The position numbers are program-made. 64,000 bases of DNA from Escherichia coli (GTDB taxonomy: Bacteria; Pseudomonadota; Gammaproteobacteria; Enterobacterales; Enterobacteriaceae): assembly GCF_041248615.1 (NCBI RefSeq), contig NZ_CP158427.1; one strand, given 5' to 3'. Positions 30,701-36,700 of this stretch are shown here, in pieces (the stretch's first letter is position 1; every line of letters starts with the position of its first letter).

Positions 30701-33700
30701 ACGAAGTGCTTCATTCATTGCTTCGGTGACTATTGATATTTTGTTCTCATCATTAATTCGTTGCTTCAGATAGTTATTATCTTTTCTGTGAATGATTATA
30801 TCGTCAGCAAGATAGCTACTTCCTTTTGTTCTCGCAAGAGAAAGGGCATCTTTTACTGCAGATGTAACCAGAGAGACACCAAGAGATGAGTCTCCGTATA
30901 TTTTACTGATCCCCGATAATTTCCCCATTACCTGAGAAATATCTAATGTGGTGCCCCCGAGATCTATAATTAATAAAGAATCTAACTCATCCAGTTCTTG
31001 TAGAACTTCATAACCTGCCGGTATAGATTCAGGCATGACTTTTACATCTTTTATTGTGAATGTATCCCCGCCATTTAATGTAATTTTTTTCCGGAAGTTT
31101 GCTTTCTTACGCTCAATATTTTCCGTATTGGGTTGGTTATTTCTGTCGTAATACTCTGTCAGAGGAAGTGTGCAAACAATATCCACTTCGCTTACCGGCA
31201 GACCACTGGTCAGTAAGGCGTGATGCACTGCAACGACATTAACGTCGCTGTATTGCCATGCGATATTGGTTGTGACTACAGCATCCGGGCTGATTGGATC
31301 AAATGAATACTGTTCGCCGTTCAGTGTGTAGTTAAAGACCTTTTTATCACCAAAAGAGACTGCCCACTCGCGTTTGAAGCTGTTCGGGCTAATGTGCTGT
31401 TTAATTGTTCCGTCGCTTTCCTGCCACTGTAGTTTGATGTTTGTTGAACCGTCATCAATGAATACCAACATTTATAAAACTCCTTATGGTGTTTTTTTGG
31501 TGTGTGTTTGGGTATGTTTTGGGTTTTAAGTGGGTTTGTTTGTCAAGTTTACCCCATTTCAACCATCAATCAATGATTATTTGTCTTGTTTTGGTGTTTT
31601 ATTGGGTTGGGTATGGGTTGTTTTTGGGTTTTGTTTGGCGGGTAACAAAAGATGTCGCCGGGCTCCTCTTTTTACTGCGCCGGCTGACGCGGCGCGGCAG
31701 GAACGCTGCCTGTGGTCAGTGTCCCGCGTCCGGCCGGGCACGGGACGGGCGCTTTTACCGCTCCCGGCTGGCGTTGGTGACAGTGTACGCCAGCCCGTCG
31801 CCCTTTTCTGATGAACGCCCTTCAAGCCGCTTTCGCGGCATATCCTCGCCGTCAAAAAGACGACGGCTGCGGTATTCCACGGTCGGCCTGACCCGTTACC
31901 GGACGCGGTGAACAGCCCACAGGCAGCGGGGAACGGGCACCACAGGGGTGCCCTCCCGGTGCCCTCTGTAAGAGAAGGAGTGCTGTTATGTCCCGTTTTA
32001 TCCTGGGTGACTGCGTGCGTGTTATGGCCACGTTTCCGGGCAATGCTGTCGATTTCATCCTCACCGACCCGCCGTATCTCGTCGGTTTCCGTGACCGTTC
32101 CGGGCGCACCATCGCCGGCGATAAAACCGATGAATGGCTGCAACCAGCCTGTAATGAAATGTACCGCGTACTCAAAAAAGACGCGTTAATGGTGAGCTTC
32201 TATGGCTGGAACCGCGTCGATCGCTTTATGGCCGCCTGGAAAAATGCGGGATTCAGCGTTGTTGGTCACCTGGTCTTCACCAAAAACTACACATCGAAGG
32301 CCGCATATGTGGGCTATCGCCACGAATGTGCCTACATCCTGGCAAAAGGCCGTCCACGTCTGCCACAAAACCCGCTGCCGGACGTGCTGGGCTGGAAATA
32401 TTCGGGCAATCGCCATCACCCGACGGAAAAGCCCGTTACCAGCCTGCAACCGCTGATTGAGAGCTTCACACACCCGAACGCAATTGTGCTGGACCCGTTT
32501 GCAGGCAGCGGCTCAACCTGCGTCGCCGCCCTCCAGTCCGGACGCCGGTATATCGGTATCGAGCTGCTTGAGCAGTATCACCGTGCCGGGCAGCAACGCC
32601 TTGCCGCCGTGCAACGGGCCATGCAGCAGGGGGCCGCGAATGATGACTGGTTTATGCCGGAGGCTGCGTAAATGAACTATGCAGGACACGAAAAACTGCG
32701 CGCCGAAGTGGCGGAGGTGGCCAATGCCATGTGCGACCTGCGTACAACCATGAATGAGATGGAGCAGCGGTACAGCTTTAATGCCGACACCCTGCCGGAA
32801 CGTCTGGTGCGTCAGACGCTGTTTCGCGCAAACCGCCTCCTGATGGAGGCATATACCGAAATTCTGGAACTGGAAGCGTGCTTTAAAGATTGAGAAGGAG
32901 ACGAGAATGTACGGAACATGCGAAACGCTATGCCGGGAGCTGGCAGTAAAGTATCCGGGAGACATGCCGCTGATGCTGGTTATCTGGTCCCCGGAAGAGA
33001 TTCAGGCACTGGCTGACGGTATGGAAATTTCTCTGACCGGTCATGAAATCAGGACCGTCCTGGCACGCCTGGAGGACATCCCGGAAGACCAGCGGATTGA
33101 GTCCGGTATTTCTTCCGCTGCGGTGATGGAGATTATCCGCAACGAGAGCGAAAACCGCCTGGTGACCGTCCCTGCTGAACTGCTGGCGTCCCTGATTCAG
33201 ACCGCTGAACAGGCATTGTGGAAACGTGAATGGGCCGCCCGGGATCATGGCCTCGCCGTCCCGGAATGCGTCACCCGCCGTCAGGAGGTGGTTAATCAGG
33301 CCCGCACCCTGCTGAAAAACAACACACACGAAAACGACTGATGTTATCGCCGCCTGCCCTGTGGGCGGCGATACAGGGAGAACGCTTAATCATGAACGAA
33401 AACAGCACGCTGAACGCACTGATTTGTCGTCACGCCCGCAACCTGCTGCTGGCGCAGGGCTGGCCGGAAGAGACGGATGTTGACCAGCGTAACCCGAAGT
33501 ATCCGGGCTGGATCAGCATTTATGTTCTGCTGGATGCGCCCCGGCTGGCGACGTTACTTATCAACCGTCACGGCGGCGTACTGCCGCCGCTCCTGGCCTC
33601 CGCCATTCAGAAACTGACCGGAACCGGGGCGGAACTGGTACTGTCCGGCAGTCAGTGGCAGTCGCTGCCGGTACTTCCGGCAGACGGAACGCAGGTGTCT

Positions 33701-36700
33701 TTCCCGTATGCCGGAGAATGGCTGACCGAAGACGAAATCAGGGCTGTACTTGCGGCGGTGCGCGATGCGGTACGCAGTGTCAGTTGCCGGGTGGCAGAAG
33801 ATGCGCGGCGTATCCGGGCGGCGCTGACCACCACCGGTCAGACGTTGCTGACTCGCCAGACGCGCCGCTTTCGTCTGGTTGTGAAGGAAAGCGATCACCC
33901 CTGCTGGCTCGATGAAGATGACGAAAACCTGCCCGTGGTGCTCGATGCCATCGTGAACCGGGGAGCACGTTTTTCGTCGGTGGAAATGTACCTGGTCAGC
34001 GATTGTATTGAGCATATCCTGTCCAGTGGGCTGGCCTGCGATGTGCTGCGTATACCGGATGAACCGCCCCGCCGCTGGTTTGACCGTGGTGTTCTGCGGG
34101 AGGTGGTCCGGGAAGCCCGGGCCGAAATCCGCAGCATGGCGGATGCCCTGGCAAAAATCCGGAAATGATGACGTTGGCGGGGTAAATCCCCGCCTTTTTC
34201 CTGCCGGTCCCCGGACAGAGCACAAAGGAAGTCGCCGCCGGCTCCGCTTTACCCGGCCATGCAGGGCATGGCCTTGTGGTTTTTCAGTTATGTGGCCTCA
34301 GCGTCGTGTGCGGGCTGTGCCGTGCCTCCATCTTAGCCGGGCTGGCAGGGATGCAAGGGTACGCTTCGCCGCTGCGGTCACCCGGTCCCTCCTTCCCGTC
34401 TGCCGTGATTTTCCGGTCGTTCACCCGCTCAGATTTCGCGGTCTCACCCTCCAACTCCCGCCAGCCGTGTGCGTCAGGCTGCGGCTTCCCTTGCGCCCTG
34501 TGCATCCCCGCCTTATCGCCCGGCTTTTATGGAGGCACGGCACCGCCCGGTGTCGCGGAATATGTGAACAACGGAGGAAAACATCATGCAATATGCGAAA
34601 CCTGTCACTCTGAACGTTGAAGAGTGCGACCGTCTCTCCTTTCTACCGTATCTGTTTGGCAACGATTTTCTGTATGCCGAGGCGTATGTGTACGCGCTGG
34701 CGCAAAAAATGATGCCGGAATATCAGGGAGGCTTCTGGCACTTCATCCGCCTGCCGGACGGTGGCGGTTACATGATGCCGGATGGCGACCGTTTCCACAT
34801 GGTGAACGGTGCAAACTGGTTTGACCGTACCGTGAGTGCTGATGCCGCAGGCATCATTCTGACTTCCCTTGTGATTAACCGCCAGTTGTGGCTGTACCAC
34901 GACAGCGGGGATGCAGGACTGACCCAGCTTTACCGGATGCGCGATGCGCAGTTGTGGCGTCACATCGAATTTCACCCCGAATGCAACGCGATTTACGCGG
35001 CACTGGACTGATTAACGGACGGGGCGGCAATGCCGCCCCTGTAAAGGAGACGAGAACATGTACTGTACTGTTAAAGAAATTATCCGCGAAGTGCTGAACA
35101 CAGACGTGCCGGACAGTGAATGCGTTTTTGCCGTGGTGCTGACCCGTGGGGATGTGCGTCACATAGCCCAGGACTGGAGTCTGACAGACGATGAGCTGGA
35201 AACCGTCATGCAGCGACTGGACGATGCCTTTGCGCATGGTGCGGATGTCAGCATTGTTCACGACGTTGTTCGTGAGCTGATGGAAGAAAAGCGCGCCAGC
35301 CGTCAGGTGACAGTTCCGGCGGTGATGCTGGAAAAAGTGATGGCGCTGGCAGGCAGTGAAATGAAGCGCCTGTATGCCGTCGGGAGCGAGAACGGGGGCG
35401 ACGGTGACGCATTCGTCAGGGAAGAACGCGAAGCAATGGACGTTGTGTTACAGGCGCTGGACGGGGAGCACATGTCATGAATATCAGCACAGAAACCCGC
35501 GAAATTCTGCGCAATTACAAAGCCGTGATTAATGCGCGGCGTCGTGAAATGGGGCAGAAACCGCTCACCACTGCGCAGATTGTTGATGAAATCTGCGATT
35601 TTGTGGCGAATCAGCAGGCTGTATTCCTCGGCGGTCACTACATCCTTCAGGGCAGCATAAACAGGTGATACAGGGGCAGGCGGTGGAGGCCGCCTGTCAG
35701 CCCGCGCGAAAACCCCTGGCAGGCTGACGCCTGCCGGAAGGGAAGCGGGCCACGCTGGCGCGTCGCCCGTTACCCTTCCCGTCTGTGATGTGTCTGACTC
35801 AGGAGTGTTTCTTTCTTATGTTATGGAACTGTTCCTGATGTTGTTGTTCCTTTATCTACTGCTCTGATTCTGACTACTGCAGTGTTGTTCTGTCTGCCGG
35901 GCGCACCTTCGGCTCCCGGCTGCCTGGCGGCATCCGGTCGTCAGGCCCGACTCCGACAGGCAGCTGCTGGCGCACCTGCCAGTCTCCGCCGAACCCGCTG
36001 GCGCGGTTTCGGGCTGCCGCTACGGTCCGATGCGTGAAAACCCCTGGCTTGCAGCGACCGTTCCGGTCGCGCCGCCTCTGTCGCGCCGTGGCCTGCGCTC
36101 CCGGCATCCCGGCAAAAGGCCGCCGGGATGTAAGGGGCAACGCCGTTTCGCGCACGCGCTCTCCGTCGTTGCGGCGGGCCCCTGCTCATTGCCTGCCGGG
36201 TGCCACACACCCGTATGAGTCCCTGTCGCCGGGGGCTGATACAGCCACAACCTGCCGCACTGACTGTCCAGGGTAAATGAACAGCCCACAAAATTTTTTA
36301 CCCAAAACCCGGTAAAAAATTTTGCGTTCTGCCCAGGACAGGTGCGTCAGGCCGTGGCAGTGATGCCCCTTGCGGCGAAGGTTCTCAAACGGGTGAAGTT
36401 CATACCACAGTGAATACAGCAGCAGGTTCCCGCGAAACGTCAAAACCGCGGCTCCCGAAACTCAACGGGTGATGTTCTTTAAAAATCAGGATTTATTTCA
36501 GGCTCCGGCAATACGCATTTATTTGTTCTGTCAGTCATCCGGCTGACAGGTAATGAGAACGCAGGAACAGAAGGAGGAAAACACCGGAAAGCGTCAGATG
36601 CAGATATGAAAAAAGCAGGTCAGGCACCTGCTTAATCCACGCCGTAAGAATTGTGCGACCAATTTTGACGGCATTGTTAACCAATTTGTCATAAGGAATC

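Follow-up and report, generated by a model that had tools for sequence, protein, structure and literature searches.

The window analysed here, 64,000 nucleotides given as one strand, belongs to an F-like conjugative plasmid of the R100 type, and it very probably contains, at the oriT-distal end of the leading region, two zygotic induction operons, each with a folded single-strand DNA promoter in front of it. The polarity of the region is set by the oriT nick-site sequence, an exact GTGTGGTGCTTT within TTTGCGTGGGGTGTGGTGCTTT, which occupies 47342-47353 of the - strand, with the SLT gene on one side and traM on the other. The - strand is therefore the one that is transferred, the methylase-klcA region forms the part of the leading region farthest from oriT, and the transferred strand is the template for its + strand genes; all genes of the cluster are encoded on the + strand. 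The methylase and klcA module is already known, and has been characterised in the IncI1 plasmid pESBL and in F. An earlier note on this DNA had taken it for an anti-restriction cluster that acts on entry to the recipient, a reading with which the near-identity of its methylase to M.EcoGIX, the family membership of its KlcA and the published pattern of leading regions all agree.

The orphan methyltransferase gene (31988-32671, + strand), flanked by parM (- strand) and a 73-codon ORF, encodes a 227-residue beta-class N6-adenine DNA methyltransferase with DPPY at residues 27-30 and FAGSGS at residues 171-176, scoring 498.7 bits against NCBIfam NF010253 (cut-off 244). The closest methylases are M.EcoGIX of pESBL and M.BceJIII of the Burkholderia plasmid pBCA072 (Fomenkov et al. 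2020, PMC7736820). M.EcoGIX, with 92% amino-acid identity over 227 residues, is the orthologue: length, DPPY and FxGxG motifs, downstream genes, leader, leading-region position and orientation are all shared, whereas the backbone is IncF (R100-like) here and IncI1 there, and 18 substitutions, most of them within the first 20 residues or in the neighbourhood of residues 75-127, separate the two proteins. M.EcoGIX is a single-strand-specific adenine methylase acting in an SAY context, and it has been shown experimentally to counter restriction of pESBL by the recipient (PMC7736820); so close a relative can be expected to have the same activity.

The start codon of the 73-residue ORF (32672-32893, + strand) abuts the methylase stop, the two being co-transcribed. 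This ORF adjoins the methylase gene in 27 loci (32-100% identity), and its sole match is phrog_4830, of unknown function. It is followed, also on the + strand, by a 144-residue DUF1380 protein (paralogue a, 32907-33341), so annotated in related records and with its synteny kept, which AlphaFold models as wholly helical (pLDDT 80.6), with matches to generic helical proteins only, and by a 258-residue protein of the YchA/NgrC family (33392-34168). A terminator-like G+C hairpin and T run (34176-34194, + strand), starting 8 nt past the stop codon of the 258-residue ORF, marks the end of the methylase operon. The gene order methylase, 73-residue ORF, DUF1380, YchA is retained across Enterobacterales.

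The klcA gene (34586-35011, + strand), recognised as KlcA/ArdB-like in the earlier note, encodes a 141-residue member of Pfam PF03230 (E 1.9e-26) that is 100% identical to pESBL KlcA, aligns at full length to the solved KlcA structure (PDB 2KMG, E 1.8e-18) and also matches ArdB (2WJ9, E 3e-7). KlcA (of RK2 and pBP136) and ArdB are active in vivo and inactive in vitro (PMC2836571). The IncP KlcA sequence is clearly diverged from the present one and is encoded in the kilC operon, whereas the present gene belongs to an IncF/IncI leading region and follows a putative single-strand promoter. A second DUF1380 protein (140 residues, paralogue b, 35058-35480, + strand; phrog_9024, E 8.9e-5), with 24% identity to paralogue a when aligned, comes next, and then a 63-residue ORF (35477-35668, + strand), which begins with a 4-nt overlap of the DUF1380b stop and in 18 loci again follows klcA or DUF1380b (51-100% identity). 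This makes five further ORFs rather than the four previously counted, and all five are conserved in related plasmids.

The GC-rich leader of the methylase operon, put at about 330 bp in the earlier note, comprises 341 bp (31647-31987; 62-68% G+C) and is assigned to class 3 of the single-strand promoters; its functional form would be the folded transferred (-) strand. That strand folds as DNA at -98.8 kcal/mol (z -6.67) into a branched main hairpin (31704-31928), with a small covarying hairpin at 31930-31956; on the + strand, a Shine-Dalgarno sequence, AAGGAG, occupies 31975-31980. The leader is 95.9% identical to that of M.EcoGIX in pESBL and 97.4% identical to its F counterpart. When 16 homologues are aligned, 98.3% pairing is kept across 84 consensus pairs, 15 of which have changes on both sides, a number reached in 0 of 500 shuffles (slid controls gave 1-4), with the reservation that the aligned sequences are related, so that the shuffle statistics overstate their independence.

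In front of klcA lies a second leader, of 390 bp and class 2 (34196-34585, - strand), which the earlier note overlooked. What had been described as one cluster behind one leader is split by it, together with the terminator-like hairpin, into a methylase and a klcA operon. The class 2 leader is 95.9% identical to the klcA leader and 93.8% identical to the ardA leader of pESBL, and 96.8% identical to that of F. Its long hairpin spans 34302-34557, its fold has an energy of -109.3 kcal/mol (z -5.82), and 10 of the 86 consensus pairs in its alignment show compensatory changes. The present plasmid has a single class 2 copy, in contrast with pESBL, because it has no ardA.

Conservation is high throughout: 31647-36106 is 93.6% identical to pESBL over 4464 nt and, segment by segment, 92-97% identical to F. 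In the comparison with F, the coding DNA (93.1% and 92.2%) has diverged more than the leaders (97.4% and 96.8%). A 300-nt sliding fold singles out precisely the five leaders that lie between genes of the leading region. Plasmid records matching the cluster region number at least 5000. Orphan methylases and anti-restriction genes generally occupy the side of leading regions for which the T-strand is the template, in islands that also hold genes for SSB, PsiB and toxin-antitoxin systems, with Frpo-type promoters interspersed (Samuel et al. 2024, PMC11541004). The window fits that pattern with no substantive difference, and its cluster is one among the thousands of instances that underlie the survey (PMC11541004).

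How such an arrangement would work can be proposed from the literature on the near-identical pESBL and F sequences. In conjugation the - strand would enter the recipient with its 5' end leading, starting at the nick (about 47349), the region under discussion being reached after some 12-16 kb. While still single-stranded, the two leaders would fold into long imperfect hairpins imitating duplex promoters, from which host RNA polymerase would read the entering strand towards oriT. The first operon would yield a methylase of the M.EcoGIX type, adding m6A to single-stranded DNA at sites of the loose SAY context and so pre-protecting the plasmid from many restriction enzymes, together with the 73-residue, DUF1380 and YchA-family proteins; the second would yield KlcA/ArdB, blocking type I restriction in vivo, along with the other DUF1380 protein and the 63-residue one. 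Synthesis of the complementary strand would iron out the hairpins and end expression, sparing the cell genome-wide methylation. The 2025 study in NAR (PMC12672017) maps the pESBL promoters, assigning that of the methylase to class 3 and that of klcA to class 2, each in front of the same genes as here, locates the class 3 transcription start by 5' RACE, and reports both classes as conserved in F, with the F operons induced in transconjugants. Promoter activity in the present plasmid we infer from sequences 92-97% identical to these, and its exact -10 boxes and start sites are likewise predictions. For class 2 a candidate -10 box, TAAGAT (34335-34330, - strand), can be proposed; a 3x3 internal loop takes in its three central bases. 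No convincing -35/-10 pair emerged from the class 3 hairpin, where the best candidate, GACACT/CACACT, likewise in an internal loop, agrees at only 3 of 6 positions.

The hairpins might instead be mainly single-strand initiation (ssi) signals that recruit RNA polymerase or primase for synthesis of the complementary strand, gene expression being secondary. Frpo was first reported to make primer RNA besides transcripts (Masai and Arai 1997, as cited in PMC9849209 and PMC12672017), the structures sit on the strand that needs priming, and the class 3 leader has an invariant 21-nt core (GCCGCGAAAGCGGCTTGAAGG, 31819-31839, - strand) that is conserved far past the needs of pairing. Yet every hairpin is immediately 5' of an operon and oriented for read-through, and both the induction of these operons in transconjugants and the positions of their starts are on record (PMC12672017). 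We regard this as an unlikely account of the leaders; priming would, in any case, add to a promoter role and not replace it.

The earlier note had suggested that the class 3 leader might be a diverged fourth copy of three downstream repeats, by virtue of a shared core. These repeats (about 36150-36480, 39470-39790 and 44870-45200) are class 1, the class of Frpo1 and Frpo2 of F and ssi1-3 of ColIb-P9 (PMC9849209). The nearest (35830-36480, - strand), which lies outside the cluster proper and is tied by repeat families D1-D5 to 39150-39795, folds at -91.7 kcal/mol (z -8.08), shares 92% identity with Frpo2, the element that precedes ssb in F (PMC9849209), and heads the next operon (a 76-residue ORF, DUF3560 and a second methyltransferase). 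Like the class 1 promoters, the class 2 and 3 leaders are long imperfect hairpins that the transferred strand forms ahead of leading-region genes, and would be active only before complementary-strand synthesis. The shared core is real: the 12-mer GAACAGCCCACA occurs exactly at 31910, 36279, 39600 and 44996, against 0.42 copies expected, the three downstream copies being mutual repeats and hence not independent counts. There are, besides, short collinear patches (25 nt at 80%, 18 nt at 78-89%; families D6 and D11). But these matches do not amount to homology. The best local alignment of the leader with any downstream repeat is a 13-mer alone, with a score of 26 that is attained by 19 of 200 dinucleotide shuffles, thus at chance level; the class 2 and 3 leaders fail to cluster with class 1 at E 1e-8; and the A+T-rich tip stem of class 1 is absent from the other classes. 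The 13-mer is, moreover, on opposite arms, template in the class 3 hairpin and non-template in the class 1 repeats. Homologous leaders with 75-81% identity have lost the 12-mer through compensated stem changes, and in 11 homologous leaders CGGAGCCTGTAC stands in its place with the partner arm altered to match, so that this is a drifting stem sequence and not a conserved motif. The published study likewise saw no homology between the classes (PMC12672017). Common descent with the repeats is thus very unlikely, and the earlier guess is nonetheless functionally close: the class 3 leader is another class of the same kind of element.

A role for the leader as the structured 5' untranslated region of an mRNA, transcribed from an ordinary upstream duplex promoter and serving as an RNA-level attenuator or stability element, is still less probable. 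Hairpin 31930-31956 does covary with Watson-Crick pairs only, and could work as RNA, and the + strand also folds well: in the present sequence the strand preference is small (-97.4 kcal/mol for the - strand, -94.4 for the + strand). Across 34 methylase loci, however, the - strand is the more stable in every one, by a mean of 8.65 kcal/mol (3.17 in shuffles), and the leader alignment contains 81 cells with G:T pairs on the - strand, which are A.C mismatches on the + strand and in mRNA, against 6 of the reverse kind. No sigma-70-type duplex promoter was found on either strand in 31450-36500, homology with pESBL begins exactly at 31647, the edge of the hairpin, with unrelated DNA upstream, and Rfam families gave no match.

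The same lack of a duplex promoter in 31450-36500 tells against the methylase being a Dam/CcrM-type housekeeping or regulatory orphan acting on duplex DNA, or a relic of a type II restriction-modification system, to which weaker PADLOC and NCBIfam matches to type II and CcrM-type methylases might point. As the earlier note had observed, no endonuclease gene is adjacent; nor did the mapping of gene homologues in 40 related loci bring one to light. M.EcoGIX itself is silent in vegetative cells (PMC7736820), and we consider a duplex role highly improbable. Least credible is that the leader codes for the 'hypothetical protein' (31618-31911 in the window) that PGAP annotates in R100, F, pESBL and others, since the longest open frame shifts in frame and length between homologous leaders, indels of 1-3 nt fall inside the annotated frame, substitutions compensate for pairing, the annotated protein has no family match, and long chance ORFs arise in G+C-rich DNA.

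The second methyltransferase ORF, also listed in the earlier note, is present at 38396-38959 (+ strand). It encodes a small SAM-dependent enzyme of 187 residues (Pfam MTS and Methyltransf_25), in which EPSAGTG precedes NPPF, a gamma-type motif order; it is probably an N6-adenine DNA methylase. It also matches PADLOC mad2 (1.3e-20) and Type II MTase models, and resembles the methylase domains of giant phage or plasmid proteins.

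The cluster at 31647-35668 encodes a methylase of the M.EcoGIX type, a 73-aa ORF, a DUF1380 protein and a 258-aa ORF of the YchA family, followed by KlcA, a further DUF1380 protein and a 63-aa ORF. It is an instance of an already described system, because its counterparts in the IncI1 plasmid pESBL, the source of M.EcoGIX, and in F have been characterised in the literature. Window 31647-36106 matches pESBL-EA11 (NC_018659) 54442-58853 at 93.6% identity over 4464 nt. Collinear within that match, the leader of the methylase operon (31647-31987; class 3) shares 95.9% identity over 341 nt with the element that immediately precedes the M.EcoGIX gene in pESBL. 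The klcA leader (34196-34585; class 2) is 95.9% identical to its pESBL counterpart and 93.8% identical to the stretch just ahead of pESBL ardA. The distal edge of the class 3 hairpin is exactly where the homology with pESBL begins; beyond it the DNA is unrelated (parC iterons in the window, a DUF1281 gene in pESBL). The same module is present in F, to which the two leaders (31647-31987 and 34170-34585) are 97.4% and 96.8% identical, as against 93.1% and 92.2% for the adjacent coding DNA. In early pESBL transconjugants six operons are induced, with a hairpin predicted upstream of each and all six starts mapped by 5' RACE in a 2025 study (PMC12672017), which also reports classes 2 and 3 to be conserved in F and the F KlcA and M.EcoGIX-homologue operons to be likewise induced (PMC12672017). 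Early expression in F requires Frpo1 and Frpo2 (Couturier et al., PMC9849209), and orphan methylases and anti-defence genes are generally enriched on this strand of leading regions (Samuel et al., PMC11541004). Since the role of the module has been established on near-identical sequences, its instance in the window adds no new biology.

The methylase (31988-32671, + strand) passes NCBIfam NF010253 / PRK13699 with 498.7 bits (cut-off 244), and 209 of its 227 residues (92%) are identical in pESBL M.EcoGIX. In the translation the catalytic DPPY (residues 27-30) precedes the SAM-binding FxGxG (FAGSGS, 171-176), the motif order of the beta class. M.EcoGIX of pESBL is known to place m6A on single-stranded DNA in the SAY context and to protect the plasmid on entry (PMC7736820); Fomenkov et al. 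described its association with PolI, its silence in vegetative cells, and protection of pESBL against recipient restriction only with oriT in its native orientation (PMC7736820). Like M.EcoGIX and M.BceJIII, the window methylase lies in the leading region, on the side templated by the T strand, and has no partner endonuclease. A type II restriction-modification system is unlikely: no cognate endonuclease gene lies beside the methylase, whose flanks are parM (- strand) and the 73-aa ORF, no neighbouring gene matches a nuclease family, and no endonuclease stands next to the methylase among the window-gene homologues mapped in 40 related loci.

KlcA (34586-35011) carries the Antirestrict domain (Pfam PF03230, E 1.9e-26), matches the solved structures of KlcA (2KMG, E 1.8e-18 over residues 5-141) and ArdB (2WJ9, E 3e-7), and has the same sequence as pESBL KlcA (100% identity); members of the family inhibit type I restriction in vivo (PMC2836571, PMC10149784). 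The observation from which this analysis started, an orphan DPPY methylase followed by a KlcA/ArdB-like gene, was thus largely correct, ORF positions and the motifs of the 227-aa protein included. Its anti-restriction interpretation is supported by the 92% identity to M.EcoGIX, by the PF03230 assignment of KlcA and by the published occurrence of the pattern (PMC7736820, PMC11541004), the system itself being already known.

Which strand enters the recipient is indicated by an F-type oriT nick sequence, TTTGCGTGGGGTGT/GGTGCTTT, at 47342-47353 on the - strand, with the SLT gene on one side and traM on the other; this identifies the - strand as the transferred (T) strand. From about 47349 the leading region extends down to the cluster, all of its + strand genes being templated by the entering strand, with the methylase gene about 15 kb from the nick. 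Annotated relatives share a fixed gene order that starts with parR-parM on the opposite strand and runs through DNA methylase, hypothetical, DUF1380 and hypothetical genes to a block of antirestriction protein, DUF1380 and hypothetical genes, and then on to DUF3560, class I methyltransferase, ssb, DUF905, a ParB-like gene, psiB, hok, DUF932, the SLT gene and traM. Plasmid BLAST with the 4.2 kb around the cluster yielded at least 5000 matching records, mostly conjugative MOBF/MPF_F plasmids from Escherichia, Klebsiella, Salmonella and Shigella, and R100 carries an identical (100%) class 3 leader. Abutting the start of that leader in the window, immediately upstream of parM, T/G-rich 11-bp iterons that form two blocks separated by about 94 bp (31478-31642) look like the parC centromere and promoter of a ParMR partition locus.

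Both leaders fold into long, stable hairpins on the transferred strand. Folded as single-stranded DNA, the - strand reaches -98.8 kcal/mol (z -6.67) for the class 3 leader, which has 62-68% G+C, and -109.3 kcal/mol (z -5.82) for the klcA leader of about 390 nt, the corresponding values for the Frpo-type (class 1) copy at 35830-36480 being -91.7 kcal/mol and z -8.08; no shuffle of any of the three was equally stable. A 300-nt fold slid over 28000-48000 picks five intergenic leaders (31640-31999, 34240-34599, 35840-36480, 39160-39800 and 44560-45200), all upstream of + strand operons. The cluster stands behind two leaders and not behind one, as the earlier note had it: a terminator-like hairpin with a T run (34176-34194) follows the end of the 258-aa ORF (34168), and the second structured leader then precedes klcA.

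The plasmid records being near-identical, divergent leaders were obtained by scanning species-representative genomes with the methylase, which gave 40 loci at 59-97% protein identity, 15 of them with a class 3-homologous leader (identity down to 75%). The class 3 alignment (n=16) contains 84 consensus pairs, with 98.3% of cells paired; 15 pairs have changed on both sides, a number reached by 0 of 500 shuffles and comparing with 1-4 pairs in slid controls. Ten of the 86 pairs of the single long class 2 hairpin (n=10) are likewise compensatory. That the structure is one of the - strand is suggested by the non-Watson-Crick cells of class 3, of which 81 form G:T pairs on the - strand, where the + strand or an mRNA would have A.C mismatches, as against six of the reverse kind. 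Within 330 nt upstream of the methylase the - strand folds better in 34 of 34 loci, and the mean strand difference is -8.65 kcal/mol, compared with -3.17 in composition-matched shuffles (32/34 loci; Wilcoxon 8e-10, the loci not being independent). These compensatory changes in both hairpins and the folding preference for the transferred strand are the comparative support that our analysis adds to the described system.

The sequence GAACAGCCCACA, shared by the class 3 leader and the three downstream Frpo-type repeats (about 35830-36480, 39150-39790 and 44560-45200), does occur in four exact copies, as had been noticed, with 0.42 expected. The suggestion drawn from it, that the leader is a diverged fourth copy of the repeats, fails as a statement of homology, the match amounting to a chance-level 13-mer, and comes close as a statement of function. 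The best local alignment of the leader with the repeats consists of nothing but TGAACAGCCCACA, at a score of 26 that 19 of 200 dinucleotide shuffles also attain; on either strand the class 3 and klcA leaders share with the class 1 copies only matches of 12-15 nt, the chance level in dinucleotide shuffles, and all-against-all BLAST keeps classes 1, 2 and 3 separate. The 12-mer also occupies opposite arms: in the leader it lies on the outer stem's template arm, nearer the gene, and in the repeats on the distal arm, beside the A+T-rich tip; in 11 diverged class 3 leaders its columns read CGGAGCCTGTAC, with the partner arm changed to match. It is a coincidental stem sequence and not a conserved motif. 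The window's class 3 and klcA leaders differ from Frpo1, Frpo2 and ssi1-3 in having no sequence similarity beyond chance to class 1, and this clear negative for homology of class 3 to Frpo is an addition of the present analysis. In each of the three class 1 loci the folding energy has two minima, separated by about 200 nt, and upstream of the part that bears the A+T-rich tip stem lies one that is very rich in G+C (up to 73%). At 650 nt they are about twice as long as Frpo, which Masai and Arai reportedly gave in 1997 as 328 nt.

A consensus scan of 31450-36500 found no sigma-70-type duplex promoter, and the boxes of the single-strand promoters therefore cannot be fixed from sequence. The non-template arm of the class 2 hairpin (34302-34557) carries TAAGAT or TACGAT in every sequence, with the middle three bases within a 3x3 internal loop; by analogy with Frpo and ssi promoters, this hand-assigned hexamer may be a -10 box that is held partly open, and a start is predicted near 34535-34539. 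Class 3 is branched: its outer stem (31704-31733 paired with 31899-31928) encloses two inner branches, and a separate small covarying hairpin (31930-31956) lies shortly before the Shine-Dalgarno AAGGAG (31975-31980). Facing the 12-mer, an internal loop in the outer stem holds an invariant nAnACT (- strand, 31723-31718), which, with TAnAnT in a hairpin loop, is the sole candidate in class 3 leaders, where no consensus-grade -35/-10 pair was found. If nAnACT (hand-assigned as GACACT) is the -10 box, transcription would start near 31919-31923, a placement of low confidence because a -35 partner was not found. A hand-assigned candidate -35, TTGA/CC formed across a three-way junction, was not reproducible in the Bordetella leader. 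The invariant class 3 core reads GACCGTGGAATA ... TATGCCGCGAAAGCGGCTTGAAGGGCG on the - strand, and its 21-mer occurs once in the window (31819-31839). In some plasmids a second exact copy of the 21-nt core lies 0.5-1.7 kb upstream of the methylase leader (loci L013:3658-3678, L018:3141-3161, L024:3145-3165, L028 and L029:4293-4313), so that class 3 is a repeated element there. A 97-aa "hypothetical protein" annotated over the class 3 hairpin (31618-31911, + strand) in public records, including those of R100, F and pESBL, is probably an annotation artefact, because homologous leaders do not preserve its reading frame and no protein family matches it; the opposite-strand ORFs also have no family match.

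Transposed to the window plasmid, the course of events demonstrated for pESBL and F would be as follows. Once the transferred strand has entered the recipient, the leader hairpins would form on it and both operons would be transcribed by the host RNA polymerase; the methylase would modify the entering strand while KlcA blocks type I enzymes, activities that have been demonstrated with M.EcoGIX from pESBL and with members of the KlcA/ArdB family; and synthesis of the complementary strand, abolishing the hairpins as in pESBL and F, would turn both operons off. Such a module helps IncF and IncI resistance plasmids to enter new hosts despite restriction, and at least 5000 sequenced plasmids match it.

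Also added by the analysis are lists of conserved companion genes and of alternative leader families, both as yet uncharacterised. The small ORFs that the earlier note counted as four are present, as five small or DUF ORFs, all conserved in related plasmids. Most enterobacterial loci keep the order methylase, 73-aa ORF, DUF1380, 258-aa ORF, usually continuing with KlcA, an optional DUF1380 and the 63-aa ORF, even where the partners have diverged to 30-60% identity. Searches of PADLOC, NCBIfam and Pfam returned nothing for the 73-aa, DUF1380, 258-aa and 63-aa ORFs beyond the DUF1380 label, and the PHROG families that the small ORFs match are all without annotated function. DUF1380 is all-helical with only generic structural matches and has no function assigned in the literature searched; the homology search with YchA matched only uncharacterised plasmid proteins. 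Conservation of order in spite of partner divergence suggests that the companions may assist the single-strand methylase as accessory factors, for instance by directing it to PolI or to the entering strand; alternatively, they may be new anti-defence proteins.

At least two more leader families, neither aligning with classes 1, 2 or 3, lie upstream of methylase orthologues. One is enterobacterial (the 330 nt upstream of the methylase gene in 12 loci, L008-L012, L014, L015, L019-L021, L030 and L031) and the other is found in Burkholderiales (seven loci, L033-L035 and L038-L041). Locus L008 represents Klebsiella plasmids of the ATCC 13883 type. All leaders of both families fold well (z -3.5 to -9.4), and better on the template (transferred) strand; they may represent single-strand promoters of classes not yet described. 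A short core, GTGGAATA...TATGCCGCGAAAG...CTTGAAGG, is common to class 3 and the Burkholderiales family. On the - strand of a Bordetella and a Paraburkholderia locus (L035 and L039), some 100-170 nt ahead of the methylase start, the class 3 core is kept as GTGGAATAA ... TTTATGCCGCGAAAG.CCTTGAA(A/G)GG, and the flanking stem is compensatorily altered, TCAAGGGAC/GTCCTTGA replacing TCAGGCCG/CGGCTTGA. A core that is kept while its stem changes in step hints that the core is what is recognised, and the common core may be the actual recognition element. This reading, with companions acting as accessory factors or anti-defence proteins, new promoter classes and a common recognition core, we regard as a tentative proposal, somewhat on the doubtful side.

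Contigs 90-100% identical to the module appear in some Gram-positive assemblies (Streptomyces morookaense, L014 and L026, the latter with 100% identity at the protein level; a Collinsella MAG, L005; and Oscillospiraceae MAGs, L006, L032 and L043), most likely reflecting contamination or mis-binning and not host range.

A second methyltransferase (38396-38959, + strand), which pESBL lacks, belongs to the next operon, where it follows the class 1 copy at 35830-36480, a 76-aa ORF and a DUF3560 protein. Matching models are Pfam MTS and Methyltransf_25 and, in PADLOC, those for mad2 (of the MADS defence system) and for type II methylases; the protein also resembles the methylase domains of giant phage and plasmid proteins of 1259-3431 aa (PHROGs). 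Its EPSAGTG, followed by NPPF, fits a putative N6-adenine DNA methylase, and the protein fits the "putative DNA methyltransferase" family (PMC11541004). Further towards oriT, the sole match of the Rfam search is a sok antisense RNA (RF01794, 88.9 bits; 43973-44149, + strand) of a hok/sok-type module, placed, as in F, between psiA and the oriT-proximal Frpo copy.
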